A stretch of 64,000 nucleotides of DNA from Planctomycetota bacterium (GTDB lineage: Bacteria; Planctomycetota; UBA1135; JACQFD01): the NCBI GenBank assembly GCA_016792805.1, contig JAEUHX010000037.1:4327-68326 (forward strand). The letters run 5' to 3'. The notes under the pieces were generated by a model that worked only from the letters and a program-made list of their open reading frames with translations, ran no database searches and was not told the DNA's origin. This document shows positions 29,342 through 54,660 of the stretch, piece by piece. Within the stretch, counting starts at the first letter, position 1. The number at the start of each line of letters is the position of its first letter. The translations under genes and the position numbers were made by a program.

Positions 29342-31120
29342 GTGAACGCAAGCGATCGAATTAGGCCCTTCGTGGATGATATTCGCGCAGTGGTATCGCA
29401 AGTAAGTACTCGAAGTACGGTTGAGCGCTGCGCGCTCTGCCACCTGCAGCGGGCGAACTCTACCTACGGATCGACACTGCTGCATTCCCACGCTAGGCAG
29501 CTTTCATTTCTGCTCGGACTACTGCTAGAGACACCCGACCGTGGGCAGTCGGCGCTGATTTCAGATGCTCAATGGAGTCGGCTGGTTGACTCCCTGAACG
29601 GCGCTTTTAGTGCCTACCAACAGTTCTTTTACCCGCAAGGCGCAGCCGACTCCTCATCTCCGAATTCCTCGTGGTATCGAGTTCGCAGGGTCGCAATGCC
29701 TGCACTTCTTCACTACGTCGGAAGCGATGTCATTGCAACGGCCGACCAGATTCAAGCGCGCATCCAGGCCTACGTAGCACCGTTCGACCTAGATCTAGTC
29801 TCAATCTGTGGGGTGTCAGCAACCGACTCACTTCGCGTCTGCCGATGGATTTCTGACAACTTGCAAGCAGCTATCGATCTCGATCAGATCCTGACTGCGA
29901 GTACACATGATTACTCGATCGATAGTGCGAGGCCCAATGACCGACCAGAGAACCGCGCAGCAAGGAACTGCGTGGTGTATCTGAAGGACATACGAGCTGC
30001 GTTTCCTAAAATCGCCGATGCCTATTGGTCGGCGTACACAATTGCTCGCGGAGCAGGACCGCCACTCTCATTCCCAACGGAGTCGACGGTGTTCGACGAG
30101 AAGCCACTGATCCTGAGGGATTCGACATCAGCCTGGTGCCCATCTGCGAATGCTCTATTTTGGTCGCTCCTCAGCGCCTGCGAGAGACGATTGATTGAGT
30201 CCAATATCAAGACGCGCTTCCTGCGACACCGGGACCAGACGCTCGAGCGAGAAGCTTTCGACCTGTTCCGCAGGTTCTTCAAGGAGAAGGCAAGGATCTA
30301 CAGCGGGCTCTTTGAGACTCCAACGCAACAGTTCGAACACGATGTCGTCATTATTGTTGGTGATCGTTGTCTGATCGTGGAAGCGAAAGCGTCCGAGCCA
30401 GTTGAGCCGTTCCGGGATCCCGAGAGGGCTTTCACAAGGCTAAGAGATGCATTCAGGTCCGAGAAGGGGATTCAGGGCGCATTCAAACAAGCTAACCGGC
30501 TAGTTCGCCGCCTCAGAACTGAGGAGAAAGTTGAACTCTTTGACGAACGCGGGAACGTAGTTGTTCGAACTGGCGCGAAAGAGCTTCGCGCCGCCTATGC
30601 GGTATGCATCACGAGAGATGATCATGGTCCCCTTGCAATCAACCTAGATCTTCTCCTCGAGAAGGAGCCCGCGGATACCTACCCATGGGTGATCAACTCG
30701 CTCGACCTGGCAACGATATGCGACTGCAGGGAGTACTGGAGCCGCCCTCCTGAAATGCTATTTGAGTACCTTGATGAGAGACTGCTCCTCCACGGTAAGG
30801 CGTTCGCGGTCGATGAGCTCGATATTATGGCTTTTTGGCTTTGGCACGGTTCGCTACGCTCGATTCTGAATGCGTCAGAAGACATAATCGCTGTTAACCC
30901 TCATTATTCTGACTTAATTGATAAGATGTACTTGGCGCGCCTCCGTGGAGGACCTCGCGTCGAACTCAGATCAGCTGCTCCAGTACCCGAGGATGAGCGA
31001 GGGTCCATGGCTTCGGGTGAAGATCCGCCTCACGCTGCAAAGAGGTTGGGGTCTAGTCGAAACAAGCCGTGCCCATGTGGGTCTGGGAAGAAATTCAAGA
31101 ATTGCCACGGAGTCGCATAA
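29342..31120 (+). CDS. PD-(D/E)XK nuclease-like protein with C-terminal SEC-C motif
   Basis: EHDVVIIVGDRCLIVEAKAS nuclease motif; RNKPCPCGSGKKFKNCHG SEC-C; visibly lower GC than flanks. Confidence 0.75.
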   Translation: MNASDRIRPFVDDIRAVVSQVSTRSTVERCALCHLQRANSTYGSTLLHSHARQLSFLLGLLLETPDRGQSALISDAQWSRLVDSLNGAFSAYQQFFYPQGAADSSSPNSSWYRVRRVAMPALLHYVGSDVIATADQIQARIQAYVAPFDLDLVSICGVSATDSLRVCRWISDNLQAAIDLDQILTASTHDYSIDSARPNDRPENRAARNCVVYLKDIRAAFPKIADAYWSAYTIARGAGPPLSFPTESTVFDEKPLILRDSTSAWCPSANALFWSLLSACERRLIESNIKTRFLRHRDQTLEREAFDLFRRFFKEKARIYSGLFETPTQQFEHDVVIIVGDRCLIVEAKASEPVEPFRDPERAFTRLRDAFRSEKGIQGAFKQANRLVRRLRTEEKVELFDERGNVVVRTGAKELRAAYAVCITRDDHGPLAINLDLLLEKEPADTYPWVINSLDLATICDCREYWSRPPEMLFEYLDERLLLHGKAFAVDELDIMAFWLWHGSLRSILNASEDIIAVNPHYSDLIDKMYLARLRGGPRVELRSAAPVPEDERGSMASGEDPPHAAKRLGSSRNKPCPCGSGKKFKNCHGVA

Positions 31121-31260
31121 AGTTGAGAACTTCTCATCCTTCGGGCTACTAGGCACAGCTGCCTAGTCTTGTTCAGAGATTTACTGTCCCAGGCTCGTTA
31201 TTCATCTGGATCTCACCCAAGAAAACTCTGGCGCTGCGCTAGGAGTATCAATGATCAACT

Positions 31261-31803
31261 CTATTCGACCACGGCAGCTACCACACTCTCCCAGTCTCTC
31301 GGGACAACCGCATGAGTTGCGCTGAGACCACGAACAATCAAGATACTTGTAAGCATCGCAACTGCGGAGATAAATTCGCTTCGGGCTGATATATTGACAG
31401 CGCCATGTCGTACGCCTTGTGCAGCGTGCAGCCCCCTGCAACAATCTCGGACCTCACTTGCATTAAAAGAGAATTCGGAATGCGAGTGCGCAGCATAATT
31501 GCGAATATCATTTATAATTCGAAGATCGGAGTAATCACAAGCCGAAATGTGCCCCATCAGGAATGCCAGTCGAGAGAGATGGGAGAACTTCGACACTCGT
31601 ACGAGTTCATCAAACTCTTTCTTGTTCGCCACCATTGACTTTCTCAACATAAATTGTAGTGTCTGTTCTAGGAATGCTGCCGCAACGATCGGGACACCTC
31701 GATCTGCCTGCTTCTGAAGTTCCTCCAAAAACCGACCCGAGTCCTCGGCGATCAAGTCGGACGGCTTCGGACGAATGCTCTTCCGCAGGGGATTTTTGCG
31801 CAT
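31261..31803 (-). CDS. MtlR-like/HEPN-fold protein
   Basis: DRGVPIVAAAFLEQTL...FSHLSRLAFLMGHI...IRNYAAH (RxxxxH). Start at ATG 31803. Lower GC. Confidence 0.7.
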   Translation of the reverse strand: MRKNPLRKSIRPKPSDLIAEDSGRFLEELQKQADRGVPIVAAAFLEQTLQFMLRKSMVANKKEFDELVRVSKFSHLSRLAFLMGHISACDYSDLRIINDIRNYAAHSHSEFSFNASEVRDCCRGLHAAQGVRHGAVNISARSEFISAVAMLTSILIVRGLSATHAVVPRDWESVVAAVVE

Positions 31804-31922
31804 GAAACGCAGTCTAATGAATGCTGCGGTTGAAACAACCTGAAGGAAGCAGAAAAGTCGCCTTCTGATCAGGATTTCGATTCTCTCAACCAGTGAAACA
31901 ATTGGTACTCGAACCAATCGAG

Positions 31923-32897
31923 CTACAACCAGTCGCCGAGCTGCTCGCGCGCTTCGCGCCAGATCTGTGTAAAGAGCGCCTGCGTGTCGAGCTCGGGGTC
32001 GCGGCGGCGGGCGGCACAGACGCGGTGGCGCGCGGCCCAGGCCTGCACCATCGCCGTCCGGTGGATGCCGAAAACACGCAGCGGCGCTCGCAGCAGATTT
32101 TGGCAGAGCGCCTGGGTCCACCAGAGGCGCCCGAAGGTGTTCTTCCAGACACACAAATAGTTATTGCGCACGCGCGTGACTTTCACGGAACGTTTCTTGA
32201 GCTTCGTGCCGATGACCCCTTCGTGCTCGTGGAAGACGAGGGAGCGCGGATCGACGACGGAGCGCCACCCGTGGCGCCACGCGCACCAGCCGAGGTCGGC
32301 GTCCTCGTAATAGTACGGAGCGTACAGCTCATCGAAGCCGCCGAGCGCCAGGAACCGGTCGCGGCGGAACATCACATTTCCGCCGTTGCCGTAAAGCGTC
32401 ACGACCGGCTTTCCGCCGGTGCGAGCGAGGTACTCGGCCGCCGGAGCAAACTTCGGGTGGTCATAACGAATGCGCCCGCGCCGCAGGCTCGGCAGGAAGA
32501 CGCCACGCCCCCCTTCCCCTTTGCCGCCGTCGGCGATCCAGGCAGCAGCCGAGAAAAGCCTCTCATCGGAAAAGTGCTCTTCCAGCGGGCTGAGGAACTC
32601 CGGCTGCGGACGCACGTCGGAATTTAATAATGCGACAAGCTCCCCGCGCGCCTCCTCCACGCCGTGGCTCGCTGCCCTCCCGAAGCCGCCGTTCTCCAGC
32701 CGCGCTACGACGCGCAGCGCCGCGCCGAATCGCTCCCGGAGGAAGTTCACCGATCCGTCTTGGCTCGCGTCATCGACCACCACCACTTCGGCGGAGCCGT
32801 GCTGCTCCGACGCGGCGAGCCACGTCGGCACATTGCGCTCGAGGAGCTCGCGTCCGTTCCAATTGGGAACGACGAGGCTGACACGCGGAGAAGCCAC
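31923..32897 (-). CDS. Glycosyltransferase family 2
   Basis: SLVVPNWNG, VVDDASQDGS, LLNSD and GGFDELYAPYYYEDADL. Confidence 0.92.
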   Translation of the reverse strand: MASPRVSLVVPNWNGRELLERNVPTWLAASEQHGSAEVVVVDDASQDGSVNFLRERFGAALRVVARLENGGFGRAASHGVEEARGELVALLNSDVRPQPEFLSPLEEHFSDERLFSAAAWIADGGKGEGGRGVFLPSLRRGRIRYDHPKFAPAAEYLARTGGKPVVTLYGNGGNVMFRRDRFLALGGFDELYAPYYYEDADLGWCAWRHGWRSVVDPRSLVFHEHEGVIGTKLKKRSVKVTRVRNNYLCVWKNTFGRLWWTQALCQNLLRAPLRVFGIHRTAMVQAWAARHRVCAARRRDPELDTQALFTQIWREAREQLGDWL

Positions 32898-36766: not shown

Positions 36767-39700
36767 GTGCCCGGATCCCAGGGACAGAATCCTTCCCCTT
36801 CGAGCCAGCGCATCGGCGGAGTCGAGCGCGTGGGCGACCCGACTCCCCATCCGCTCGGCAGCCGCTGCCCGGGCATCTTGGTGGCGAGCGGCGACAAGCT
36901 GCTGATCGATGAGTGGTGCGCGAAGAGCCTTCGCCCGGGAAAGTCGCTGGCCGATTTGAAAAGCGCCCTCGAGGCGCGCACGAAGCCCAATGTTCCCGGA
37001 ACGGCGCCCTGCCGCGAAATTATCGAAGTCACCGGCGCCCACTGGGTAGTCCGCGACGCGCCGCGGGCGCAGATCCGATCGACGCGCCTCTCGTTCGCAC
37101 ACGTGCAATCGGTCGAGAATGCCGCCCGAGTCGCGCGCGCCGTGGCCGAGCTCCACGCGGCCGGCCGGGTCCATGGCAACATTTCGCCCGAAACCGTGTC
37201 GCTCGAAGGTCCCGTCTTTCTGTGGGAAGCGGCTCTCGATGCGCTCACGGAGGAGTTCGCCGAGGCGAGCGAGGATGCCCGCTGGTTCCCGGGGAAGGCG
37301 CCCGAGCTCTGGAGCGGCGGCCCCGGCGCCGCCACCCAGCGCGGAGACGTCTACAGCCTTGCAGCTCTGCTGGCGGCCGCGGTGCTGGGCAACGACCTCT
37401 TCGGCGAGATGGCCGATTTTGTTGCTTTCGGCTGGCAAGACTGGGCCGAGCAGCCCGAGTCGAAGCTGCCGGGCATCGATTTATTGCGTCAGACCCTCGG
37501 CGACAACGACCTCGTGCGCGTGTGGCTTGCCGCACTCGAGAAAGACCCGGGGCGCCGTTCGACGTCCGCCGGGGAGTTCGCCGAGGCGCTCGAGCAGTTT
37601 GCCCGGCAGTCCCGCGCCCAGGTTGCGCCGCCTCCTCCCGTTCAGACGGCGCCGCCCCCGACACCCGCCTCCCAGCCCTCGGTTCTCGACGACCCGACGC
37701 TCGACCCCGAGGAACTCCAGGGAAAATTGGTGGCCGGCTACCGCGTCGAGAAACTCCTCGGACGGGGCGGCATGGGGCTTGTGTATGAAGCGGAGCAGAT
37801 GAAGCTCGAGCGCCGCGTTGCGCTCAAGGTGCTCCTGCCCGACCTCGTCAAGCGGCGCGACCTCGTCGAGCGATTCCAGAAGGAGGCGCGCACCGTCGGA
37901 AAGTTCAATCATCGCAATATTGCGGTCGTCTACGACGTCGGCAGCGTCGGTAAGGTTCACTATATCGCGATGGAGCTCGTCGACGGCGTGAGCCTCGACC
38001 GCGTGATCCAAGATCGCGTCGACCAGCTTCAGCTCGGAGAGAAAGCGAGCGCCGTCCCGAAGCACTCCTCACTGCTTCCCTTCCGGACGCACTATGTGCG
38101 CTCGTGCATCGAGACGATCGCGTCGATTGCCGATGCTCTCCACGAGGCTCACCGGCGCGGGCTGATCCACCGCGACGTGAAGCCACAGAACATTTTGGTA
38201 AATTCTGAGGGCGTGCCGAAACTGTTGGATTTCGGCCTTGTGCGCGAAGATCAGGGCGAGACGCTGATGTCGTCCGCCGGCTTCGTCGGCACATTTGTGT
38301 ATTCGGCGCCGGAACAGGTGGTGTCGAAGTCGAATGTCGACCGCCGCTCCGATATCTATTCGCTCGGAGCGACGCTCTATGAGCTGCTCACACTGAAGCG
38401 CCCCTTCGAAGGCACGAGCGAGAAGGTCTTCGAGAAGCTGCAGAAAGACGCGCCGCCGCCGATGCGCACGCTCAACGCATCCATTCCGCCCGAGCTCGAC
38501 GCGCTGGTTCTGAAGGCGCTCGCGCGCGAGCGCGACGGACGTTACAGCAATGCGGAGCACTTCGCGGTGGCGCTGCGCGATTACGTCCGCGAGACGCCGG
38601 AAGATGAGCTCGAGCGCGCGGCGCCGACGGGTGCCGGCGGCGATCCGGCGGCGACGTCGCCTCCGACGGCGTTACGCAAGACTGCGGCCCCGTCCACGGC
38701 GAAGCCCGCGTCCTCGACCTCCGGCGCACTCATCCGCCTCGAGCTGCCGGCCCGCTGGCCCAAGCGCGTGGCGTCGAGAATCTTGAACTTGCGCGGAGTC
38801 ATCGAGAATTGCCCTGCGTCAGCACGGGACGTTCTTGTGATGGTCGGTGCCGAGCGGCCGGTCCTCGCAGGGATTCAGGAAGGCAAGCGAGTCGACGTGT
38901 CGATCGAGCTGAGCGAAGGGAGCAATGAGCTCTCCTTTGCCCTCGTCGACGGATCGCGACGCCAGCTCACACGACCCGAAGTCGTTGACTCCACGGGGAC
39001 GCCGATCCACGACGACGGCGGACTCATTACACTTCTCGTCGAGCGATCGAAAGCACCGAGCGCTCCGCCGGCACGGGAGCCAGAGCCGGCCATGACGTCC
39101 CCGCGGCCGCAGCCCGGTTCGGCTCGCCCGCGCCGAGAAGAGAAGGCGGGCCCATCTCCGGCGCTCTGGGGCGGATTGTTGATTGTGGGAATTCTCGGAG
39201 CCGGGTTAGGCGGCGCCTTTGCCTTGAAGCTCCCCCCGTTCTCGGAGTCAGAGCAGCAAATTCGAAACGGAGGCGCCAAGCCCGAAGACGGTGGATCCAG
39301 CAGCGGAACTGTGCAGCGAACAGAACCGGGCGCAGGCGCAACAAATCCCGGCCCCAACCCGGCAGGGACCGCGGGAACCGGGACCGCCACCCCGCCCGCC
39401 GACCCCGAAGAAGCAGCTCTGAAAGAGAAGATCCGGTCTGTGGACCAGCTTCTATCGGAAGCGGCCGCCAGCGGTGATCCCTTACAGAAGCTCGAGCCGG
39501 CGTCCGCTGAGCTGCACGATCTCCTCACGACTCGAAGCTACACAAAGCTCGCACGAGTGCTTTCAACGGATGAACAGAAAGCACGCTGGACCTCACTTTT
39601 CGAAGGCGTGCGCAAACTCACGGGGCGAAGCGACCTCAAGGACGCCGATCGAGCGCGCTTGCTGCCAGTGATCGAGCGCCTTCGCAAGGCCGCCGGAGGA

Positions 39701-42700
39701 ACGGAGGGAGTCGGATACCCGCTCGCATTGCCCGAACAGATCTGTGGCCTTCTCGTCGATCGAGCCGAGATGCTCATGGCGATGCCATCGCCGAATTTTG
39801 AGGAGATCGGAAAGAGCCTTCGAGAGGCGGCGGACCTCGGTGTGAAGCTCGAAGACCCCGAAGATTGGACCCGAGGGCTCCGGCCGAAAGCCGCGCGCCT
39901 TTGGGTGGAATCTCTCCTCGCGCGCTATCGCGCGAAGGAGCTGACGGCCGCAAACGCCGATCGCGCGCGCGAGGAAGCCCAGGACGCGATGAAAGATCCG
40001 CGCCTCGCGCTCAGCGATCTGCAGCAAGCTGATCTGTTGCTTCTGACGGCTCGGTGCGCCCGCGAGCGCAAGCAGCAGGATCAAGCGCTCGACGGACTGC
40101 GCATGGCGATCGACAAGGGCGGCGCCTCCTGGGGCCGCAAAGGTGAGGCCGTCGCCACGGCAGCGGCTTCGCTGCAGGGCTTCCTCGGCGAACTCGGCGA
40201 CCGGGCGGCGAGCCCGCAGGCGGCTCCTGCTGTGATCTCAAGAATCCAGGGGTGGCTCCCTTCGATCGTCGAGGCGAGGCTCGGACCTGAGCAGGGGTGG
40301 TCGCAGCAGGCACATGCAGATTTGTTGTATGCGCTCGCGCGCGCGCAGGAGGCGGCTCAGCAGCCTGCGGCGATCGCGACCTACGAGCAGGCGCTTCAAG
40401 CGGCGCCTCCGACCTGGGCCCAATATTCCGAGTGCTTCCGGAAGGTCTCCCAGAAGCGCTTTCAAGATCTGGCATTCACGGCGAAGGGCGAAACCGCTGG
40501 ACACCAAGCATCCGCAACGGGCCTGCGTGCGCTCTTCGAGAAGCTGGCGCCCCAGTCAACCGGCGCGGACGGAGCCCATTTCCTGGCCGACGTGCAGGCG
40601 GAGATCGCCAAGCACTGCGATGCGGCCGCCGACGTCGACGGCGCCCTCGCGGCGCGCGAGAAGGCCCTCTCCCTCGATACAGATGCGGCGAAGCCGTGGT
40701 CCGGCGCGAAGGCGACGAGCGACGCATTTGTGGCAAGCCTCCTCGACACGCTCGAGGCCTCCCAGTCGCAGGCCGCCAAAGTGAAGTACTCCGAGCGTGC
40801 CAAGCAGCTCCTGACTCCGGCATGGGCGGCGCGCGGCGTATCCGATCACGACCGTGGCCGCGTGCACGCTCAGCTCGGTGCGCTTCACGCTGCCGCCGGA
40901 CACGAGGCCGATGCCAACGCGGCGTACTCCGAGGCGATCAGGCTCCTCGATCCGGCGCGCGCGGGATCTCCGTACAAATCGGTTCTCGGCGCGTGGGCGA
41001 AGCTCGCCGCGCGCGAGGAGAGCTATCGGGTGGCCAAAGGCACCGATGCCGGTTGGATCCAGCAGCTCCTGGACAAGGCGGAAGCGCAGGCCGACAAGGC
41101 TCTCACGCCGCTCGAGCAGGCACGGCTTCTGTATCGTTGGTCGGTGGCGCTGATGGCGGCCGGGAAGGCGGAAGAGGAGCGCTCGGCGCTCGCTCGCGCG
41201 GACGAGGTGCTCAAGGCGAATGCGTCGGCACGCACAGAGGACGCTTGGCTCAACCAGCGCATCCTCGACCGACGCAAGGAGCTGCTCACTACGGGGACGA
41301 CCTCTGCATTCACCGAACTCAAGAATCTTTACGAATCGGTGAAAAGTAAGAGTTCGAGCGACACGCAGCTCGCGGACCTCGGCTTCCAGATCGTGACCCA
41401 CGCCGAATTCGGCGGAGCGGACCCAGTTCCTTATCTGACGACCTGCCTCCAGGTGTCGACGCCGAGCTGGGGTAATTATCGCCTCGCTTGGGGTCGGCTC
41501 GTGGATAGCAGGCTCACGCCAACGCTCGATGTCCGTGCGAATTCACAGCAGGCGAAGCTCGCGGCCCTCGATGAGTGCATTGCGTTCGCCCGCGGCATCG
41601 AGGAGGACGAATCGAGCCGCCTCTCGAAGGTGTACCGGGCAAAAGGCAAGATCCTCATGGAGCCGGCGACGTCGCCCACGTTCGATGCCGGCGTCGGCGC
41701 TTTGAAGTCGGCGTTCGCCCTGCCGGGCGTTCAACCGGAGGTGAAGGAACAAATCGTGGGCGATCTGCTCGGAGGCGTTCGCCGCCGCGCCCGCGCAGTC
41801 GGCGGAGATCTCGAGGCGGTTCGCGCCCTTCGAACGCTGCTGAGCGGAGCAGATACAACAGTCGGCGGTTTGTGGCGAGAGCTCGAAGCCGCCAAGCCGA
41901 GCGCCGCGACCACCCAGGACTTCGCGGAGACGCTCATTTTCCTGGGCGACCTCGCAGTGCGCCGGCCGGCGAACGTGCCGGATACTCGTGAGATCGTCCT
42001 CGGTGGCGACCGCGGCGCGCTGGCGCTGGCCAATAGCTCCTATTCGCACGCGACCGTCGTGATGGGGAAGCAGGGCCTTGACTGGGTTCTCTCGTCCTAT
42101 GCCGACGGCCGGATGAATTCGTACCGATCGATGGCCGAAACCGGCGCTGGGGACCGCAAGAAGAAACAAATCGGCGCACGCAATGAGATTCGCACCGCGG
42201 CACGCGGTCTCTCGCTTTTCCTTGGCCGGGGCTGGGTCGAGCGCACCGGGATGCCCTACATCGCGCCGTCCTCACTCTGGCGGATCGACGATGCTGCTCC
42301 CGACGACCTCGAACTCCATGTGATCGTTCAGGACACCAAATCCACCCCCGAAGTCACCGACCTCTATACACAAACGGCGGCGATTCACTCCGTCAAGACG
42401 GCGGACCTGCAGCGCGATGGCAAAGGAAAACGGCTCTCCGATGCGCTTGCTCGAGTGCTGGACTCCTGCTCGCTGATCGAGAAGATACAGATCGATAGCA
42501 CAAAGCTGCGGCCTTATAAGTGCGTCAGCGAACCGGGGGCATCGCCGCGATTCCGAATCCAGTTCGACTATCAGGGCAAGCACCTGCGATCCGGCAACGA
42601 CGTGGCCGGCTCGGCGGTCCTCTTCCTCGACGACCGCTCGCTCGTTTGGGCCGTGGGTTCGATGCGCAAGAGAGACTGGGACAGCGTCGAATTTGATCAT

Positions 42701-43285
42701 TATAGAAATGAGCTGGCCGGTGCCATGCGCTGGGCCGAACTCTCCACCGAATTCCAGCCGGTCGTGCTGGAAGACGGCCGTGCGAAGTTCCCCGGCTACG
42801 GAATCGAGCTGCAGCTCCCCGAGAAGGACTGGAGCGTCCGCGGAATCGACCACGCCGCGTTCGGAAGCGACGAAGACAAGAGTGACCTTCTGAAGCGGGA
42901 TCCCATCGGACTTCGGCTGCAGCATCCGAAGCTCGGTATTGTGTTCCTCGAGGTCCGAGCCGAAAAGGAAGCCTCTCTCGAGTCCTACTTCGCGCAGGAC
43001 AAGGGCTACAGAGACAGCGACAATTCTTGGGATCCACTCGACATCGACATCGAGGATGAGACGCCGTGGATGGCCTATCGCTATCACAATCTCGGAAATG
43101 TGGAAGACCAGGAGACTCCGATCTGGACGATTGTCGCTGCGGCGCGCCGCAAGACGGGTGGCATGCTGGCGCTGCGCGCCGAGGTCGTCCGCGAGCCGGG
43201 AGCCGAGGAAGCACCGAAATTCCCCGCCGACCTCGAAGGCTTGCGAAAGGCGATGGTCGCCGCGATCCAGGCATTCGCGAAATAG
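36767..43285 (+). CDS. Giant membrane Ser/Thr kinase 1 (pseudokinase + Hanks kinase + TM + helical repeats), 2172 aa
   Basis: Degenerate first domain (LHAAGRVHGNISP, APE, GDVYSL) and complete second domain (LGRGGMGLVY, VALK, HRDVKPQN, DFG, APEQ, DIYSLG); TM near 39164-39227. Confidence 0.9.
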   Translation: MPGSQGQNPSPSSQRIGGVERVGDPTPHPLGSRCPGILVASGDKLLIDEWCAKSLRPGKSLADLKSALEARTKPNVPGTAPCREIIEVTGAHWVVRDAPRAQIRSTRLSFAHVQSVENAARVARAVAELHAAGRVHGNISPETVSLEGPVFLWEAALDALTEEFAEASEDARWFPGKAPELWSGGPGAATQRGDVYSLAALLAAAVLGNDLFGEMADFVAFGWQDWAEQPESKLPGIDLLRQTLGDNDLVRVWLAALEKDPGRRSTSAGEFAEALEQFARQSRAQVAPPPPVQTAPPPTPASQPSVLDDPTLDPEELQGKLVAGYRVEKLLGRGGMGLVYEAEQMKLERRVALKVLLPDLVKRRDLVERFQKEARTVGKFNHRNIAVVYDVGSVGKVHYIAMELVDGVSLDRVIQDRVDQLQLGEKASAVPKHSSLLPFRTHYVRSCIETIASIADALHEAHRRGLIHRDVKPQNILVNSEGVPKLLDFGLVREDQGETLMSSAGFVGTFVYSAPEQVVSKSNVDRRSDIYSLGATLYELLTLKRPFEGTSEKVFEKLQKDAPPPMRTLNASIPPELDALVLKALARERDGRYSNAEHFAVALRDYVRETPEDELERAAPTGAGGDPAATSPPTALRKTAAPSTAKPASSTSGALIRLELPARWPKRVASRILNLRGVIENCPASARDVLVMVGAERPVLAGIQEGKRVDVSIELSEGSNELSFALVDGSRRQLTRPEVVDSTGTPIHDDGGLITLLVERSKAPSAPPAREPEPAMTSPRPQPGSARPRREEKAGPSPALWGGLLIVGILGAGLGGAFALKLPPFSESEQQIRNGGAKPEDGGSSSGTVQRTEPGAGATNPGPNPAGTAGTGTATPPADPEEAALKEKIRSVDQLLSEAAASGDPLQKLEPASAELHDLLTTRSYTKLARVLSTDEQKARWTSLFEGVRKLTGRSDLKDADRARLLPVIERLRKAAGGTEGVGYPLALPEQICGLLVDRAEMLMAMPSPNFEEIGKSLREAADLGVKLEDPEDWTRGLRPKAARLWVESLLARYRAKELTAANADRAREEAQDAMKDPRLALSDLQQADLLLLTARCARERKQQDQALDGLRMAIDKGGASWGRKGEAVATAAASLQGFLGELGDRAASPQAAPAVISRIQGWLPSIVEARLGPEQGWSQQAHADLLYALARAQEAAQQPAAIATYEQALQAAPPTWAQYSECFRKVSQKRFQDLAFTAKGETAGHQASATGLRALFEKLAPQSTGADGAHFLADVQAEIAKHCDAAADVDGALAAREKALSLDTDAAKPWSGAKATSDAFVASLLDTLEASQSQAAKVKYSERAKQLLTPAWAARGVSDHDRGRVHAQLGALHAAAGHEADANAAYSEAIRLLDPARAGSPYKSVLGAWAKLAAREESYRVAKGTDAGWIQQLLDKAEAQADKALTPLEQARLLYRWSVALMAAGKAEEERSALARADEVLKANASARTEDAWLNQRILDRRKELLTTGTTSAFTELKNLYESVKSKSSSDTQLADLGFQIVTHAEFGGADPVPYLTTCLQVSTPSWGNYRLAWGRLVDSRLTPTLDVRANSQQAKLAALDECIAFARGIEEDESSRLSKVYRAKGKILMEPATSPTFDAGVGALKSAFALPGVQPEVKEQIVGDLLGGVRRRARAVGGDLEAVRALRTLLSGADTTVGGLWRELEAAKPSAATTQDFAETLIFLGDLAVRRPANVPDTREIVLGGDRGALALANSSYSHATVVMGKQGLDWVLSSYADGRMNSYRSMAETGAGDRKKKQIGARNEIRTAARGLSLFLGRGWVERTGMPYIAPSSLWRIDDAAPDDLELHVIVQDTKSTPEVTDLYTQTAAIHSVKTADLQRDGKGKRLSDALARVLDSCSLIEKIQIDSTKLRPYKCVSEPGASPRFRIQFDYQGKHLRSGNDVAGSAVLFLDDRSLVWAVGSMRKRDWDSVEFDHYRNELAGAMRWAELSTEFQPVVLEDGRAKFPGYGIELQLPEKDWSVRGIDHAAFGSDEDKSDLLKRDPIGLRLQHPKLGIVFLEVRAEKEASLESYFAQDKGYRDSDNSWDPLDIDIEDETPWMAYRYHNLGNVEDQETPIWTIVAAARRKTGGMLALRAEVVREPGAEEAPKFPADLEGLRKAMVAAIQAFAK

Positions 43286-43361: not shown

Positions 43362-44288
43362 TTACTTCCCGCCGAGCTGCGATTTTAGCTGTGCATTCTC
43401 CGGGAAGAGCTTCAGCCCCTTCCCCCACACTTCCTGGGCCTTGGCGGTATTCCCCTGCTGCTGATACATGTTGCCCAGGAAATAGTACGTTTGGGCATAT
43501 TCAGGGTTTGTCCCGCCGGTCGACTCCTGCTGCGTGACGAGCGTCTCGAATTGTTTGATCGCCTCGTTCTGCTTGCCGAAGATCGGCGGCCAGAAGGCGA
43601 GCGAAGTGGCCTTCGAGAATCGTGCGCCCCAATGCTGGGGGCTGCTCGCCAACGCCGTGTCGAAGGCCTTGTCGGCCTTGATCGCCCACTCGCCCCTCGC
43701 AGGGCCATCCTGCACGCCCTGGAGCTTCTCAATGAAGCCCTGCCCGAGCGCATATTGAAGATCCGCATTCCCCGGCTGCTCCTTCGCGCTCGCTTCGATC
43801 GCCGCAAGCGCCTCGTCGATCATTCCAGCGTCTCGGATCTGTGCCCACAGATCGCGCTTCCAATCGCCCTTGGCGGCTGCCTCGAGAATCTTGGCCATTG
43901 CATCCGCGAACTCTGACTTCGTCAGTTTTCCGGCCGCTTTTGTGACTTTCCCATCTGTGGACGCTCCTGAAAGCGTTCCCGCGTCCGCGGCACCGGCCGC
44001 ACCCTTTCCGGAGCCAAGCCCCTTCGCGGTGAGCACTCTCGCAACAGCCGCCTCGAGATCGGCGTCCGAAATCTTCGAAGGCGCGGCGGCCACCGCCGGC
44101 TGCGCCGCCTGCTGCGCAAGGGCATCGAGCTTGCGCTCAAGCCCTTCGAGGCGCAGCTCAAGCGCCGCGCGCCCGGCCGAGTCCTCCGCAGTCGCGGCTT
44201 TCTCGCCAGACCAGGACGCCCGCGTCACTCCGTAGGCAACCACACCCGAGATCACAATCGAACCGACGATGGCGGCAGCAGTCTTCAT
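43362..44288 (-). CDS. Membrane-anchored or exported TPR protein
   Basis: Hydrophobic N-terminus, short coiled coil, TPR motifs (YYFLGNMYQQQGNTAKAQEVWGKGLKLFP). Confidence 0.8.
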   Translation of the reverse strand: MKTAAAIVGSIVISGVVAYGVTRASWSGEKAATAEDSAGRAALELRLEGLERKLDALAQQAAQPAVAAAPSKISDADLEAAVARVLTAKGLGSGKGAAGAADAGTLSGASTDGKVTKAAGKLTKSEFADAMAKILEAAAKGDWKRDLWAQIRDAGMIDEALAAIEASAKEQPGNADLQYALGQGFIEKLQGVQDGPARGEWAIKADKAFDTALASSPQHWGARFSKATSLAFWPPIFGKQNEAIKQFETLVTQQESTGGTNPEYAQTYYFLGNMYQQQGNTAKAQEVWGKGLKLFPENAQLKSQLGGK

Positions 44289-44360
44289 GGGAACGGTGAG
44301 CTTCAAAAAAGGGGGATGGGCAGCAGCCGGTGCCTCCGGCGCGCGCCCACAAGATCGGAC

Positions 44361-49983: not shown

Positions 49984-50477
49984 ATGGCGACCCTCAAGGC
50001 AGCGCGAGCGACTTCCCGGCACGAGCAAAGGCCCGACGCCGCGGCGCTCTGGCGTCGCCTGCGCGCAGCGCTCGCGACGCAGGGCGACGCGGCCTACCGC
50101 ACGCAGATCGAGCGGCTCGTGCCGGGGATTCGAACCCACGGCGTCCACGTCCCCGCGCTGCGAGCGACAGCCAAGGAGCTGAAGAGCGAGACCGACGCGC
50201 CGACAGCGGCTGCGCTCCTCGACCTCGCGGCCGCTTCCGGGAATCGCGACGAGCTGCTGGCCTGCTGCTTCCTCCTGGCGAGCTTCGGGAAGGCGGCACG
50301 CGCCCTGCCTTGGACGCGGATCGAGCGTTGGCTTCAGGCCGTCGACAATTGGGAGACCTGCGACCAGCTCGCCATGGGACTCGCCGCGCCGGCGCTGGCG
50401 TCGAGCCCGACCCGTTCGCGCCCCTGCGCACGCTCACAAAAAGCAAGAATTTGTGGCATCGGCGCTTCGCGCTATTG
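49984..50477 (+). pseudogene. DNA alkylation repair (AlkD-like) gene, frameshifted and 3'-truncated
   Basis: [13 protein letters not shown] and VDNWETCD in one frame; the continuation [14 protein letters not shown] is in another frame after about 50410; similarity ends near 50475. Confidence 0.7.
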
Positions 50478-50815
50478 TATGGCCTGCCCTCGAGTTCAAT
50501 GCTAACCGTTGAACACGCGCACGAGTGCCGTTCGTCGTCGATTGAAAGGGATTGGTCCGATCTATTGCGGAATGAATAGACGAACTCAATCGCACCAGTG
50601 CCTTCCTGGACCTCGCGACGAATCGTCTGCTTTGCGAAATCCAGCTCTGGAATCGGGTTGCTTCGGGCCGAACTCTCGCCCAATGCGCTCTCGGGCAACG
50701 GGATCAATTCTCTCAATTGCGGCAAACATGTCCCAACAGACAGTGCAATCATGCCAAGCAGTGTGAAAGGAACGCTCGCAAAGCGAATACGCAAATAGTC
50801 GAAGCAGAGTCTCAT
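50476..50815 (-). pseudogene. DUF1573-domain exported protein, 3'-truncated
   Basis: Signal-like N-terminus, then EFVYSFRNRSDQSLSIDDERHSCACS (DUF1573 SCxC motif); the reading then runs into antisense AlkD sequence. Confidence 0.6.
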
Positions 50816-51209
50816 AGACGTGTGTCTCTTGTAATCTTGAATACGGCTCGGCTTGAGTAGTTGATTTTTTCACGACCTCAAAGTACATGACTTGAGGTCC
50901 GAGGTCCATCCGAAGCGCCAACAATGAAGTCACTTGTCGGAAAGTCAGCTCATCTGATTCGCTGTCAAGTTGCGCCGGCTTTGTGACATGTGGTCTTCCA
51001 AGCGCCGCCATATCTTCGAAAACCACTACTGTGACTAGATCGCGAGGATCTGCGAAACTAGCGATTCAACTTAGAAGGTCAGGTACTGAGCCATCCGAAG
51101 AGGAGAAACCGCTATCCACGCAACGAAGTTCGAATATCTGAATCGACCTTACCGAGGACCCCAAGAATCACTATCTCGCGGCCCAGAGATCGGACACGAG
51201 AGTTGAGGG

Positions 51210-51794
51210 TTAGTTGTTAGAAGGACACATTGAACACTGAAGGAGGATATCCGCGATGCTACAGCTGCCATATCCACTAGGACTTGGGGTCGGACAGTAC
51301 CCTGGCGCATACGAAACATCACACACGTAGTATTCATCACACTCAACTGCTTTGTTCAGGAATCCAAAAGAGATTCCTCGTCCCGCCTCAACTGTGTTAC
51401 TATTTCCATGGGTCAGAGAATTGTCGCCATTGGGAACCTGGGCTGGCGGCGCGCCCTGTTTCAATCCCTCTTCCTGCCGGATCGTAAGCGGCCCGTTCGT
51501 GATATTTGTCAACGTAATCGTAGCGCGCCGCCAGAAACAGTTATCAATCGGGTTGCAACTAAAACAATTGGCGCAACATTCTCCATTCTCCATTCTCCGC
51601 GCCAACTACATTGATCGTGATTGTCCATTTGATATCGCACTCGTATCCGCACAAGTCCATTGCGACGAGCTCGCCGTACAGCCGTCGCAAGGATCGAGCG
51701 CACCCTTTGTAGAACGAGCGAGCAAAGAGGCGGAAGGCGAAATCGTTGCGAGCGCCATGAAAACGACTGCGAGCAGGGGGAGATTCTGGGGCAT
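51210..51794 (-). pseudogene. Cys-rich secreted protein interrupted by an in-frame TAG or compensating frameshifts
   Basis: ORFs 51606..51794 (signal peptide, CDGC) and 51210..51605 (11 Cys) are contiguous in the same frame, separated only by TAG at 51606-51608. Confidence 0.6.
51577..51598. repeat. 7-bp tandem repeat (CATTCTC)x3 inside the Cys-rich gene
   Basis: CATTCTC CATTCTC CATTCTC C read directly from the sequence. Confidence 0.9.
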
Positions 51795-51855
51795 GTTTGT
51801 GTTTCCTGTGCAAGGCTAACTATCTTGAATAGACCAACTAGACCTGAATACGCCT

Positions 51856-52566
51856 TTAGTGCTTCGAGAGCCGGTGTCGCAGATAGCGAATTTCGTCGTT
51901 CAGTAAGTACAGATCTGGATACTCACTCTTGCTGAGCGAGACAAACCATGTAATGCTCTTCTTCGTTGCACGAATCTCGTCGATCCTCTCAATTGGATTG
52001 GTGATTGATTGGTAGAATACGTCGCCCTGAATCTCACTCGGAGTTTTGATAAGCTCATTGCCGGTTCGCGCGACCTCCACATAAAGCCCCTTTCTCCGCC
52101 GATCGTTCATTGCCTGCTCGTAGATTGCGTCAAATGCAGCCTGGAGCGCGCCAATGGACTCGCTGAGCTGGGCCGGGCTTGCCTCCGCATACTTCGTACT
52201 GAACTGCTTCGCTAGTTCCTTGACTTCTCGCTCACGACGCGTCTCAGCTCGAGACTCAACCAGGATGGAGTCAACCTGATGTCTCGCTGACTCGGGGCGC
52301 TCAACTCCAGCATTCGAGGCGGCCCCCGATGCGGCTGCAGCCTGAGTGACACCCGGCTGGCCGGAACCAACGCCTCGAGGGGCTCCATAATCAGTCCTCC
52401 GCTTTGACTCGTCCTCTCCGGATTGCCATAACAACAGGACCCCGACGGTCACGAGAAAAAAAACAGCGACGCATGCGGCGAGCAGGGCGGTCGCGCGCCC
52501 GCGTGTCCTTCGTCCAATCATCCACTTGGGAGGATCTTGCTGACGCAGAGTCGTGTGAGAATCCAC
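51856..52566 (-). CDS. Hypothetical single-TM protein
   Basis: 236-aa ORF in the lower-GC insert with TM ALLAACVAVFFLVTVGVLLLW; no recognised domain. Confidence 0.65.
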   Translation of the reverse strand: MDSHTTLRQQDPPKWMIGRRTRGRATALLAACVAVFFLVTVGVLLLWQSGEDESKRRTDYGAPRGVGSGQPGVTQAAAASGAASNAGVERPESARHQVDSILVESRAETRREREVKELAKQFSTKYAEASPAQLSESIGALQAAFDAIYEQAMNDRRRKGLYVEVARTGNELIKTPSEIQGDVFYQSITNPIERIDEIRATKKSITWFVSLSKSEYPDLYLLNDEIRYLRHRLSKH

Positions 52567-52843
52567 AAGGTACTGCCCAAGATGTGAAGAGCGACGTTAA
52601 TGGAACGCGTTTGTGCTGTCAAGCGATTGATGCTCCGTGATGATTGGCTACTTTCCTACTTTCGGCATGAGGCGGGGCGTCGCTGCGGGATCCGGTGATG
52701 AAATCGCAGGATTAGAAACGAGAAAGACGAGAAAAGTGCCACCCGAAGTGCCCTTGATGAGAAGCCGGAACGCGTTCGGTCAGACCCGGGGAATGCATCC
52801 TGAGGGACGAGCGTCTGCTGAGCTCGTCAACCCGCATGATGAC

Positions 52844-53099
52844 CTAGGGCCGGGAAGCCCGCGTTGGCGTCCGTCGGTTCGAGCACACGGTTTCTTGCTC
52901 AACGCTCGGTTACCGTCGGAACGGAGCGCCTCCCCTCGAGATTCAAGCTTGGGAGGCTTCGCGCTTGTTTCGCAGAACACTCCCTTCGCGGGCTTTCATG
53001 GGGTGTATTGAGGGAGGTTCTGCGAGTTGGGTGCCCTCGATGGCGCGAGCCACTATTCGAACCACGCGCCGTCCAAGGCTGGCTTGTGTGACGCCCTAG
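52844..53099. mobile_element. ~256-bp MITE-like element bounded by CTAG
   Basis: CTAGGGC...GCCCTAG ends with imperfect ~45-bp inverted arms (AAGCC-GC-TTGG...GGTTCGA) and an internal stem GCAGAACACTCCCT...AGGGAGGTTCTGC. Confidence 0.5.
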
Positions 53100-53182
53100 C
53101 ATCCAGAGCGCCGACGTCTTGATTTTCAAATGGCCGATTCCTTGGTTTTCGGATAGCCGATGGGCGAACTTACGATCAGCCG

Positions 53183-54433
53183 ATGGTCTCGGAGACCCAA
53201 TACCCCCGACTGAGCGAAGCGACCCTCCATGAGTCGCTCTCCGATTCGCCTGCGGTACTGATCCACGGCCCGCGCCAATGCGGGAAGACGACTCTGGCGA
53301 AAGCGATCAGCGCTACGAGCGGCCATGCGTATTTCACGCTCGATGACGAGGCTGTCCGAAACGCCGCACTGAGTGACCCCGTTGGATTTGTGGCGAGCCT
53401 TCCTGAGCGCGTCGTTCTCGAGGAGGTCCAGCACGTCCCCCATCTGTTCTCTTCACTCAAAGTGGCGATCGACCGTAACCGAGTTGCCGGCCGATTTCTG
53501 CTTACAGGATCTGCCAATATTCTGCTCCTGCCGAAACTTGCAGAATCACTCGCCGGGCGAATGGCGATTCATCGGTTGCATCCGCTCTCCGAATGTGAAC
53601 TGGAAAGGTCTGACGGATCCTTCCTCGACAAGCTGTTCGAGGGCTCCTTCAGAATGCAATCATGGCCGCGGCTTGGAGACGCGCTCATCCTGAGGATCGT
53701 GCGAGGTGGCTATCCAGCGGCCGTCAAGCTGCCTGAAGGCCGCAGGCGAAGTCGGTGGTATCGCGACTACGCCGACGCCGTGATCCAACGAGACGTGCGT
53801 CACCTCAAGGAGATTGCAACAGTCGATGTGCTTGAGCGATTGCTCTTGACAGCAGCATCTCAAACCGCGCGCCTCGTAAATTTCACAGATCTGGCAGCTC
53901 CGTTCCAACAATCACGGCCGACGATTCGAAGCTACGTCGATCTCCTCGCTCGACTCTTCCTCCTCGAGGAGCTTCCGCCATGGCATGTGAACCGAATGAG
54001 CCGGCTTATCAAAACATCGAAACTTCACATGGGAGACACGGGGCTCACCAGCGCCCTTCTTGGCCTGAATGCGGCCGCCCTTCAAAGCGATCGAAACCTC
54101 CTCGGTCAACTCCTCGAGACATTTGTAGTCCAAGAGCTGCGCCGCCAGGCGAGCTGGTCGAAGGTCGACGCTCACTTCTATCATTTTCGTGATCGTGACA
54201 ATTATGAGGTCGACGTCGTCCTCGAAGGAAATGGACGTGAGATCGTCGGAGTGGAAACAAAAGCATCCGCGACCATCACCGCCGCCGATTTCCGAGGGCT
54301 CCGAAAGCTCAAGGCGATGGCAGGGAAGCGATTCGCCTGCGGCGTCGTTCTCTACGATGGCGAGATGAGTCTCCGATTCGATGAATCGCTCTTTGCGATT
54401 CCCGTGCGTGCGCTCTGGGAGGCTCCGGGCTAG
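53183..54433 (+). CDS. AAA+ ATPase with DUF4143 / PD-(D/E)XK C-terminal domain
   Basis: GPRQCGKTT Walker A, LLTGSAN, ESLAGR, GGYP, DTGL and EVDVVLE...VETKAS. Confidence 0.9.
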   Translation: MVSETQYPRLSEATLHESLSDSPAVLIHGPRQCGKTTLAKAISATSGHAYFTLDDEAVRNAALSDPVGFVASLPERVVLEEVQHVPHLFSSLKVAIDRNRVAGRFLLTGSANILLLPKLAESLAGRMAIHRLHPLSECELERSDGSFLDKLFEGSFRMQSWPRLGDALILRIVRGGYPAAVKLPEGRRRSRWYRDYADAVIQRDVRHLKEIATVDVLERLLLTAASQTARLVNFTDLAAPFQQSRPTIRSYVDLLARLFLLEELPPWHVNRMSRLIKTSKLHMGDTGLTSALLGLNAAALQSDRNLLGQLLETFVVQELRRQASWSKVDAHFYHFRDRDNYEVDVVLEGNGREIVGVETKASATITAADFRGLRKLKAMAGKRFACGVVLYDGEMSLRFDESLFAIPVRALWEAPG

Positions 54434-54660
54434 CTCGTCGGGGCAGAGGCTTCCGTCGAGACCCGCCACGACTGGCTCCGCTCTTCGCGCACGTCAGCTC
54501 GAGGGCATCCGCCGCCCATACGCGCCCACGCGAAGCGGTCCGGCGTTCGGCAGTGCGCTGTCAGACGTTCCTCCGAACGTCCCCTTTTGGCGCGCCTCAA
54601 TCTCCCGGATACTTCGCCCTGAAGTCCCATGGTCTGCAAACCCGCGACCCAGGAGGTTCT

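Follow-up and report, generated by a model that had tools for sequence, protein, structure and literature searches.

A conserved tandem of a dead and a live kinase domain was found in a membrane protein of very large size, encoded in the 64,000-nucleotide stretch of DNA analysed here (the window), which stems from an uncultured member of the Planctomycetes. The gene product is best explained as a receptor-type Hanks Ser/Thr kinase particular to a Planctomycetes lineage, predicted to cross the membrane once with its N-terminus in the cytoplasm. On balance, we favour the reading that its N-terminal domain, psiK1, a predicted dead kinase, acts as a non-catalytic regulator of the live kinase to which it is fused, a logic shared with JAK JH2-JH1 and GCN2 and reached independently. 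A dead kinase directly preceding a live one has hardly been described in bacteria.

Architecture of the gene product

The open reading frame noted in the sequence-only reading was recovered with exactly the same coordinates (Table 1), and a public protein collection holds an identical 2172-aa protein, P0003. From the N- to the C-terminus the product comprises psiK1, a Pro-rich linker, the kinase, a family-specific domain, a TM helix, a helical region and a C-terminal domain.

Table 1. Features of the tandem kinase gene, of its convergent neighbour and of its paralog, with positions in the window
Feature	Residues	Position	Strand	Basis or remark
Whole gene	2172 aa	36767..43285	+	ORF list and translation; GTG start
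psiK1	~11-285	36797..37621	+	AF2, Foldseek, VIA-align, motifs
Pro-rich linker	286-321	37622..37729	+	Translation
Canonical Hanks-type Ser/Thr kinase	325-595	37739..38551	+	Pfam Pkinase, motifs
Family-specific domain, kinase/TM interval	~650-762	38714..39052	+	Conservation among relatives
Predicted single TM helix	796-823	39152..39235	+	Kyte-Doolittle
Ala/Leu/Glu/Arg-rich region, presumed periplasmic	881-1789	39407..42133	+	Sequence composition
C-terminal domain	1790-2172	42134..43282	+	Common to paralog B and G001_A, alignment A4
Convergent TPR-repeat gene, just downstream		43362..44306	-	Pfam TPR matches
Paralog B	2002 aa	54661..60669 (ORF opens 54553)	+	Same architecture, P0006
Paralog B, psiK1		~54688-55545	+	Pfam, hydropathy, alignment
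Paralog B, kinase		55654-56436	+	Pfam, hydropathy, alignment
Paralog B, TM		57082-57156	+	Pfam, hydropathy, alignment

The complete Hanks kinase that had been described after the Pro-rich linker (residues 286-321) was borne out by its motifs and by a Pfam Pkinase match with an E-value of 6.3e-42. The full motif set (GRGGMG, VALK, HRDVKPQN, DFG and APE) is present and is canonical in all six members of the family. The best NCBIfam match is PknB_PASTA_kin (NF033483) with 281 bits; this score lies under the 450-bit cut-off and Pfam returned no PASTA domain, so the protein was rejected as a PknB/Stk1 PASTA kinase equivalog.

A Kyte-Doolittle scan with a 19-residue window showed a peak of 2.02 at residues 796-823, the sole membrane-grade segment outside the kinase-like fold, while the only other peak (residues 195-213) falls within that fold. 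A single TM helix followed by about 1,350 residues had been proposed and agrees with the 1349 residues found beyond the helix; the placement of this part outside the cytoplasm is a prediction from the hydropathy scan and the charge distribution. The succession of kinase, TM helix and outer part corresponds, as predicted from hydropathy, to the architecture of bacterial receptor Ser/Thr kinases.

The family-specific domain has neither a Pfam match nor a PDB sequence match, and a word search retrieved only the protein itself and its ortholog, to which the domain is 97.3% identical; it can be aligned in five of the six family members. The Ala/Leu/Glu/Arg-rich region, in which the ortholog is 90.4% identical, matched none of the Pfam or NCBIfam families significantly, the best being DUF6974 with an E-value of 0.27. 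The C-terminal domain shares 22% identity (72/325 positions, E 2e-10) with that of the paralog, and modelling did not yield its fold (pLDDT 46). Pfam detected no known sensor domain, PASTA or other, in the whole protein. Over their first ~810 residues, the main gene product and paralog B are 53% identical (429/811 aligned positions).

No FHA or PP2C partner genes lie near the receptor gene; the five FHA matches of the genome are all on other contigs, and the PP2C_2 profile had no match in this 91%-complete genome. A TPR gene is found at the same place in genus G001 (L013, 14158-15087, minus strand), and from its position a link between the TPR gene and the receptor may be inferred.

An N-terminal domain with a kinase fold and degenerate motifs

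Structure modelling, which the sequence-only reading had named as a check of the N-terminal domain, was carried out on residues 1-300 and returned a complete two-lobed kinase fold with a pLDDT of 89.1 and a pTM of 0.86. Foldseek searches with the psiK1 model gave at least 500 PDB matches at E <= 1e-3, and among the matches listed 44 of 46 were named protein kinases, the other two having titles without a protein name. All of the 1000 chains re-aligned by VIA-align reached Z >= 8, the top structure being M. tuberculosis PknA 4ow8 (Z 22.6, rmsd 3.3 A, 250 residues); the rows also included HER3 (Z 21.1) and KSR1 (Z 20.6), which are pseudokinases. AF2, Foldseek and VIA-align all agree on the kinase fold that had been claimed; the alignment used for folding contained 5 family members and 14 ordinary kinases, and the latter may have biased the model toward such a fold.

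Sequence matches provided evidence of homology independent of the AF2 model. The psiK1 sequence alone retrieved 1096 matches at E <= 1e-3 among 1.84 billion proteins, and the 12 non-family matches scanned with Pfam were all Pkinase proteins. The NCBIfam MAD6 kinase model matches residues 95-293 with an E-value of 1.3e-11, and psiK1 is 26% identical to its own kinase domain (46/178 positions, E 4e-6). Judged from these comparisons, the resemblance between psiK1 and kinases exceeds chance. Pfam reported no kinase family for residues 1-300 at E <= 10; routine annotation overlooks psiK1 because Pfam detects only one kinase domain, residues 325-595.

The motifs were read from the translation together with a profile alignment that covered 49 kinase-like domains. 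The position of the Gly loop is occupied by TPHPLG, which is no Gly loop, and the beta3 position by LLID, with an Asp in all six family members where VAIK has its Lys. The catalytic loop reads HGNISPET instead of the expected HRDxKxxN, the catalytic-loop Asn being absent as well, and the HRD Asp is lost throughout the family (HGN in five domains, HGG in one). APE and GDVYSL are retained. With respect to the fold and to the loss of the VAIK Lys and the HRD Asp, psiK1 is a pseudokinase by the sequence definition. All these points agree with the earlier description, which had also stated that DFG is missing: the Phe and Gly are indeed gone, psiK1 having EAA and the six members [E/D][A/S][A/S], but an acid persists at the DFG-Asp position in every member (Glu in three, Asp in three), in a short segment whose alignment is possibly one residue off.

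The domain would be inert and would not bind ATP, while this acid and five residues that are invariant in the former active site (R33, D48, H136, D158 and E163; six-row alignment A3) could form another site. They are also what speaks for psiK1 being an atypical enzyme or small-ligand sensor with a pocket rebuilt from Arg33, Asp48, His136, the DFG-position acid and Asp158, in the style of SelO and SidJ, which are kinase-fold proteins with other activities according to the available text of a bacterial pseudokinase catalogue (PMC12599244). We consider this very unlikely, given that psiK1 has lost its Gly loop and beta3 Lys as well as the Asp and Asn of the catalytic loop, that the nucleotide-holding N-lobe is its least conserved part (31% identity, versus 44% in the C-lobe) and that the searches run, Pfam and NCBIfam among them, showed no similarity to SelO or SidJ.

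Conservation of the tandem and a proposed regulatory role

The dead domain had been reported as retained in both paralogs, and a search for the architecture extended this to the whole family: in all six members, which belong to three genera of one Planctomycetes family, psiK1 is fused to a live kinase. The family is rare: its proteins make up 5 clusters in a set of 1.84 billion representative proteins, and 3 of the 301 genomes of the order contain it. psiK1 was never found alone, as its five matches at E <= 1e-30 are all proteins of 1099-2165 aa with more than one matched stretch each, and the three scanned with Pfam (P0006, which is paralog B, P0007 and P0008) also carry the kinase. In three of the six members (G000_C, G001_B and G019_A) the live kinase is flanked by two dead kinase domains.

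Within the family, the kinase has a mean pairwise identity of 51%, psiK1 one of 38.5% and the linker one of 32%. The faster evolution of psiK1 with respect to the live kinase and the loss of its catalytic residues would be expected of a decaying, functionless remnant of an internal duplication, a view that we find hardly credible. psiK1 is full-length, in frame and folds confidently in AF2, and the same degenerate motifs recur in six of six members across three genera. Between close orthologs it is 96.7% identical, while the kinase reaches 99.6%, the outer regions 90% and the disordered stretches and linkers 54-57%; the difference from the linkers fits the suggestion of selection on the dead domain. 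In the tree, psiK1 domains and kinases fall into separate clades (SH-aLRT 100 and 99, respectively), with the A/B pair sister in both; the long and well-supported common stem of psiK1 indicates that it degenerated long ago and has been preserved in this form. Because psiK1 is conserved, the idea of a decaying remnant is largely refuted.

A direct contact between the two domains was evaluated by complex prediction, using the kinase (residues 312-612) with psiK1 (residues 10-292) in three runs and with three controls. The runs scored 0.42, 0.38 and 0.00 (median 0.38) against a best control of 0.00, agreed in at least 8% of the contacts and gave partner pLDDT values of at least 84. When the method was calibrated, 58 of 80 solved complexes attained the mark, as did 2 of 110 mismatched pairs; scores <= 0.60 were obtained by only 7 of those 80 complexes, plus both passing mismatches. 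Since kinase-kinase dimers are frequent in the PDB, the pass may reflect memory. The interface between two kinase folds that had been anticipated is weakly supported by this test.

The best-conserved stretches of psiK1 are C-lobe surfaces, namely the RWxPGKAPELW segment and the GWQxW helix-G region. Surfaces of the kinase C-lobe commonly bind other proteins, and psiK1 might be a docking platform for substrates or signalling proteins that neither touches nor regulates its own kinase, the tether keeping clients near the active site. The long, Pro-rich and poorly conserved linker is as expected for a flexible tether, the weak prediction of a direct contact fits as well, and pseudokinase scaffolds such as EssB/YukC appear in the available text of the catalogue (PMC12599244). 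However, the gene neighbours (an aminotransferase, the TPR protein and a CarboxypepD_reg protein) include no candidate client, and two of the three complex runs placed psiK1 on the kinase while all three controls gave 0.00. We regard a pure platform as unlikely.

In the favoured regulatory reading, psiK1, nearest to the cytoplasmic N-terminus, would neither bind nor use ATP and would be joined by the Pro-rich tether to the intact PknB-like kinase, as its non-catalytic regulatory partner. Regulation would proceed through the two conserved C-lobe surfaces, with psiK1 docking either on the kinase of its own chain or on that of the other subunit in a receptor dimer; this docking may set the kinase activity once the outer part senses something. 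A stronger form, possible though rather doubtful, holds that the JAK/GCN2 principle evolved independently in bacteria, with an obligatory nucleotide-free psiK1 switching the fused receptor kinase on or off via its conserved Trp-rich C-lobe face. If this stronger form is true, the family would lend itself as a compact and genetically simple model for allostery by a pseudokinase within a transmembrane receptor. The six diverged family members are too few for co-variation analysis.

Relation to known kinase systems

A pseudokinase directly before an active kinase is the well-known arrangement of animal JAKs, and GCN2 also bears live and dead kinase domains on one chain. The planctomycete protein resembles JAK JH2-JH1 in domain order, in the direct fusion on one chain and in the conservation of the pseudokinase with the kinase. 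It differs in being itself membrane-spanning, in the lack of FERM and SH2 domains (Pfam reports kinase families only, and psiK1 begins at about residue 11) and in its catalytic loop, HRDVKPQN, of a type that marks Ser/Thr rather than tyrosine kinases, with bacterial Ser/Thr kinases as the best family models. Moreover, JAK JH2 domains bind ATP, whereas psiK1 has neither the Gly loop nor the beta3 Lys. The term "JAK-like" used previously holds for the domain order and not for family membership, which was rejected on the missing FERM and SH2 domains, the TM helix and the PknB-like kinase of Ser/Thr type. The two arrangements arose independently.

With PknB/Stk1-like receptor kinases the protein shares all the Hanks motifs, and its kinase is likewise followed by one TM helix and then by a large further part, which is the commonest bacterial architecture in the available text of the bSTK atlas (10.1101/2025.01.12.632604). 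It differs from them in having no PASTA or other known sensor and in the extra dead domain preceding the kinase, which is unlisted for any of the 42 families in that text (10.1101/2025.01.12.632604). The available texts of this atlas and of the pseudokinase catalogue contain no occurrence of the word "tandem" (10.1101/2025.01.12.632604; PMC12599244). The view that the pseudokinase-kinase tandem is undescribed is in line with its absence from these two texts.

The theme of a live and a dead kinase in tandem is not unique, because other Planctomycetes-type proteins carry the opposite order, K-psiK-psiK in P0010, P0012, P0016 and P0020 and K-psiK in P0011 and P0017, P0011 being annotated as a Planctomycetaceae MAG protein. 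These six proteins, which are among the nearest non-family matches and were read domain by domain, have a canonical kinase with one or two degenerate kinase domains behind it and make the arrangement less singular than had been supposed. They were chosen because several stretches of each were matched, and their proportion among the matches is therefore not a frequency. They likewise contain several kinase folds per chain, some with degenerate HRD/DFG, and HGN occurs also in P0010 d2 and in P0020 d2 and d3. In contrast, their live kinase leads and their dead domains are recognized by Pfam, whereas psiK1 leads, is invisible to Pfam and is separated from their domains in the tree as a long-branched clade of its own.

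The bacterial pseudokinase families ActPs1-3, GLW, CP1, DYD, DLHK, EssB/YukC and MviN, as given in the available catalogue text, have substituted catalytic residues within a kinase fold, as does psiK1, and are often membrane-associated (PMC12599244). They are described there as stand-alone domains with non-kinase partners, unlike psiK1, which is fused to a live kinase, and none is reported in Planctomycetes, a word absent from that text (PMC12599244). Compared by motif, no set printed there, including those of the ActPs1-3, CP1, DYD and DLHK representatives in its Table 1, shows the combination of Asp-beta3, HGN and [E/D]AA (PMC12599244). Assignment to GLW was rejected, as the family requires GLW in place of HRD and poly-Leu/Trp in place of the beta3 Lys in the same text (PMC12599244), and psiK1 has HGN and LLID.

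Plant tandem kinases of the WTK/Yr15 type, in the accounts available, also place a live and a dead kinase on one chain. Together with GCN2, they are described as soluble eukaryotic proteins of another kinase lineage that have no TM helix or outer domain and serve in immunity or translational control.

The N-terminal domain of the receptor

The receptor gene encodes a protein already represented by an identical entry (P0003) in the public protein collection. Pfam returned a single domain in the whole sequence, a protein kinase at residues 325-595 (E 6.3e-42), and the motifs of this live kinase were canonical in all six family members in a profile alignment of 49 kinase-like domains. A Kyte-Doolittle scan showed one membrane-grade segment, at residues 796-823, the only other peak lying inside the kinase-like fold, and 1349 residues follow this hydrophobic helix, in agreement with the count of the sequence-only reading.

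That reading had also assigned a kinase fold to the first 280 or so residues, the domain here called psiK1, and both homology searches and structural modelling bore this out. A phmmer search with residues 1-300 against 1.84 billion representative proteins returned 1096 matches at E <= 1e-3, and all 12 of the matches outside the family that were scanned with Pfam were Pkinase proteins. Within the window's own genome the query recovered the N-domains of its two paralogs and ten other long ORFs (E 5e-9 to 4e-3); the three of these ORFs that were checked were all Pkinase proteins, matched in the C-lobe. The NCBIfam kinase model MAD6 matched residues 95-293 (E 1.3e-11), and psiK1 shared 26% identity with the receptor's own kinase domain (46/178 positions, E 4e-6). 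Sequence searching of the PDB gave weak matches only (PknE, E 0.0076), the eight rows comprising five kinases and three unrelated enzymes. Pfam found no kinase family in residues 1-300 alone at E <= 10; its only matches to the N-domain at this threshold, DUF7185 (0.075) and DUF2322 (0.28), were taken as chance.

AlphaFold2, supplied with a 19-row alignment of five family N-domains and 14 short distant kinase matches, returned a model with a pLDDT of 89.1 and a pTM of 0.86, in which five strands and helix C form the N-lobe and the helical C-lobe is complete. The presence of ordinary kinases among the aligned rows may have aided this model, the sequence evidence being independent of it. Foldseek gave at least 500 PDB matches at E <= 1e-3, and 44 of the 46 matches listed were named protein kinases, the titles of the remaining two naming no protein. 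All 1000 chains re-aligned by VIA-align scored Z >= 8, the best match being M. tuberculosis PknA (4ow8, Z 22.6, rmsd 3.3 A over 250 residues), and the pseudokinases HER3 (Z 21.1) and KSR1 (Z 20.6) were among the rows.

The catalytic motifs of psiK1 are altered as previously read from the sequence. In all six family N-domains the GxGxxG motif is absent, the beta3-Lys position is occupied by Asp, and the Lys and Asn of the catalytic loop are missing. The HRD position reads HGN in five members and HGG in one, and the DFG position reads [E/D][A/S][A/S] throughout, with an acid retained at the DFG-Asp position (Glu in three, Asp in three). The APE motif, the helix-F Asp (DVYSL) and a KDPxxR motif are kept. 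By the usual sequence definition psiK1 is a pseudokinase, two of the three catalytic residues being gone and the third position acidic. In the model, the activation loop is replaced by the segment LDALTEEF (residues 157-164), which is predicted to be helical and varies very little among family members (D158, A159, E162, E163). The surface residues W173, W182, W223 and W226 are invariant.

Family members, distribution and conservation

The six diverged members come from the window's genome (G000) and from two relatives' genomes (G001 and G019), and their coordinates are collected in the following table together with those of the neighbouring features.

Coordinates of the family members and of other features (window positions unless a contig or locus is named)
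Feature	Position	Strand	Length	Remark
Receptor gene, G000_A	36767-43285	+	2172 aa	GTG start; ORF call and translation
Region modelled for psiK1	36767-37666
Stretch of the kinase domain	37998-38110		residues ~411-448	present in 6/6 members (alignment)
Paralog B, G000_B (P0006)	ORF 54553-60669, called start 54661		2002 aa from called start	second large ORF of the window
G000_C	contig C51, L009:801-4283		1160 aa
G001_A (P0007)	L013		2056 aa
G001_B (P0008)	L014		1613 aa as called
G019_A	L022, 6366-11219		1617 aa
TPR protein	43362-44306	-	314 aa	convergent to receptor gene
TPR gene of G001	L013:14158-15087	-	309 aa	same place after G001_A
AAA_14/DUF4143 ATPase gene	53183-54433			directly upstream of paralog B
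Low-GC stretch	30001-32000			GC 0.53-0.59
Low-GC stretch	50001-54000			GC 0.53-0.59; ends at ATPase gene
Multidomain protein, L012	contig C34:81000-87500 (G000)		>1638 aa	partial Pkinase

psiK1, the linker and the kinase lie in one frame in all six members, which come from three genera; the dead domain, previously noted in both paralogs of the window, is thus retained in every member. Paralog B shares 53% identity with the receptor in the cytoplasmic part (429/811 positions) and 22% across the last ~325 residues (72/325). A long helical region and a common C-terminal domain are present in G000_A, G000_B and G001_A, while the outer part of G001_B consists of TPR and FGE-sulfatase domains. In G000_C, G001_B and G019_A, three of the six, the kinase is followed by a second and weaker kinase-like domain that precedes a C-terminal TM helix, with profile matches at iE 9.5e-8, 1.4e-7 and 0.011; the live kinase is therefore flanked there by two degenerate kinase domains. 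In G000_C this second domain matched PknI (E 0.05); its HRD position reads HGS, and 'AGFG' stands close to the DFG site.

The distribution of the family is narrow. Only five clusters of the 1.84-billion library matched at E <= 1e-30, all of them long proteins with more than one matched stretch, and the three scanned with Pfam all carry a kinase too. Across 185,579 species genomes, pattern scanning yielded six confirmed loci; only two were true relatives, and these share a single MAG with the title 'uncultured Planctomycetales bacterium'. At E <= 1e-15 a match occurred in 3 of 301 same-order genomes, the window's genome included; two of the three other genomes of the same family matched, and none of the 297 genomes searched from nine other families of the order. 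Metagenome scans gave 165 pattern matches with the receptor protein, none confirmed, and 153 with alignment A1, of which five were confirmed, all weak matches to C-lobe parts (28-38% identity) and none a family member. In the collections searched the family is limited to a few uncultured Planctomycetes, and within the window's genome, where 50 Pkinase matches reached E <= 1e-5 (some being two pieces of one domain), psiK1 occurs in only three of several dozen kinases.

Identity by region among the six members and with the near ortholog P0004
Region	Mean pairwise identity	Identity to P0004
psiK1	38.5% (N-lobe 31%, C-lobe 44%)	96.7% (261/270)
Pro-rich linker	32%	91.4%
Kinase	51%	99.6%
Family-specific domain	27%	97.3%
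Outer regions		about 90%
Disordered stretches around TM		54-57%

By these identities psiK1 has changed more rapidly than the live kinase, yet it is clearly constrained. A quick IQ-TREE analysis of 46 rows, from which the partial domains P0024_d3, P0099_d1 and G000_C_d3 were left out, placed the psiK1 domains in one clade (SH-aLRT 100) and the family kinases in another (99), with the A/B pair sister in both, which implies that the fusion is older than the three genera. psiK1 lies on a long branch apart from all other kinases, and this long stem gives no origin.

Contact with the kinase and comparison with known systems

The sequence-only reading had expected an interface between the two domains. 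Complex prediction was carried out on kinase residues 312-612 and psiK1 residues 10-292, each with a 6-row family alignment. The three runs scored 0.42, 0.38 and 0.00, with a median of 0.38; none of the three controls rose above 0.00. At least 8% of contacts are shared between the runs, the partner pLDDT is at least 84, and no interface was reported. In the tool's calibration, 58 of 80 solved complexes and 2 of 110 mismatches attained the mark, and scores of 0.60 or less came from only seven of those 80 complexes and from both mismatches that passed. A pass could also reflect memory, since kinase dimers are abundant among solved structures. The prediction gives the putative contact a small push in its favour, as weak support.

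The observation as a whole is confirmed: the receptor is a real, conserved pseudokinase-kinase fusion and represents a new, narrowly distributed Planctomycetes receptor-kinase family. Its interpretation is supported in part: the proposed regulatory role of the dead domain, with weak computational backing, can reasonably be inferred.

Regulation of one kinase by a pseudokinase partner is central to signalling in animals and plants, with JAK, HER3, KSR and the plant tandem kinases as examples. In bacteria, the pseudokinases described so far have been regarded either as scaffolds that stand alone or as domains fused to parts other than kinases. Both bacterial receptor STKs and pseudokinases that partner a kinase are already known kinds. 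If the regulatory role is true, a conserved fusion of dead and live kinases in a bacterial receptor would mean that bacteria arrived at this regulatory logic independently, and would offer a small single-polypeptide system for studying pseudokinase regulation. Profile libraries miss domains such as psiK1 and, since Pfam sees one kinase domain in the receptor, counts of bacterial pseudokinases are underestimates. The label 'JAK-like' holds as a functional analogy and fails as kinship, the receptor lacking FERM and SH2 domains and having a catalytic loop of Ser/Thr type; GCN2 and the plant tandem kinases are likewise functional analogies, not relatives.

A 2025 review of bacterial Ser/Thr pseudokinase families (PMC12599244) and an atlas of about 300,000 bacterial STKs (10.1101/2025.01.12.632604) describe, in their accessible parts, seven pseudokinase families between them, none of which matches the motifs of psiK1; the words 'tandem' and 'Planctomycetes' each have no occurrence in the accessible text of either. 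Literature searches returned nothing relevant on pseudokinases in Planctomycetota. They also returned no report of a bacterial pseudokinase-kinase fusion, and Kwon et al. 2019, which reportedly surveyed pseudokinases throughout the tree of life, may hold relevant architectures.

The arrangement, previously put forward as undescribed, is absent from these catalogue texts, but kinase-pseudokinase tandems exist in other Planctomycetes-type proteins. Six of eight near matches to psiK1, chosen for several matched stretches so that shares among them are not frequencies, carry a canonical kinase followed by two degenerate kinase domains (P0010, P0012, P0016 and P0020) or by one (P0011 and P0017). All six are annotated simply as 'serine/threonine protein kinase', P0011 with a Planctomycetaceae MAG as its annotated source, and some of their degenerate domains have HGN for HRD. 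Their domain order is opposite to that of the receptor family. Pfam detects their degenerate domains, unlike psiK1, and in the tree these group separately from it. Kinase-pseudokinase tandems may be common but overlooked among proteins of this type.

Outer part and gene surroundings

Pfam at E <= 10 gave no credible match in residues 620-880 or 881-2172. Residues 620-880 had no PDB sequence match, and a word search with residues 640-800 returned only the receptor itself and its ortholog. The C-terminal domain (1790-2172) had no PDB sequence match below E 0.1 and no homolog of 210-671 aa among 8000 candidates scored. Its AF2 model, from a 3-row alignment, reached a pLDDT of 46 and a pTM of 0.39, and the ESM Atlas returned unnamed clusters together with DcrB, DUF4946 and DUF3805 at 0.90-0.92, which are leads only.

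An aminotransferase gene lies upstream of the receptor, and the TPR protein, a CarboxypepD_reg-repeat protein and an aconitase are encoded convergently downstream; the TPR neighbour is kept in G001. No FHA or PP2C genes lie near the receptor. The five FHA matches of the genome are all on other contigs and PP2C_2 has no match in this 91%-complete genome, neither of which excludes partners. Nine runs were listed for the stretch, none of them recorded as RNA. The two low-GC stretches of the window, compared with about 0.65 elsewhere, may be inserted or mobile DNA. Finally, the protein at L012, elsewhere in the same genome, combines its partial Pkinase with AAA_16, GAF and sigma-54 activator domains, resembling the CP1-type architecture of the pseudokinase review (PMC12599244).
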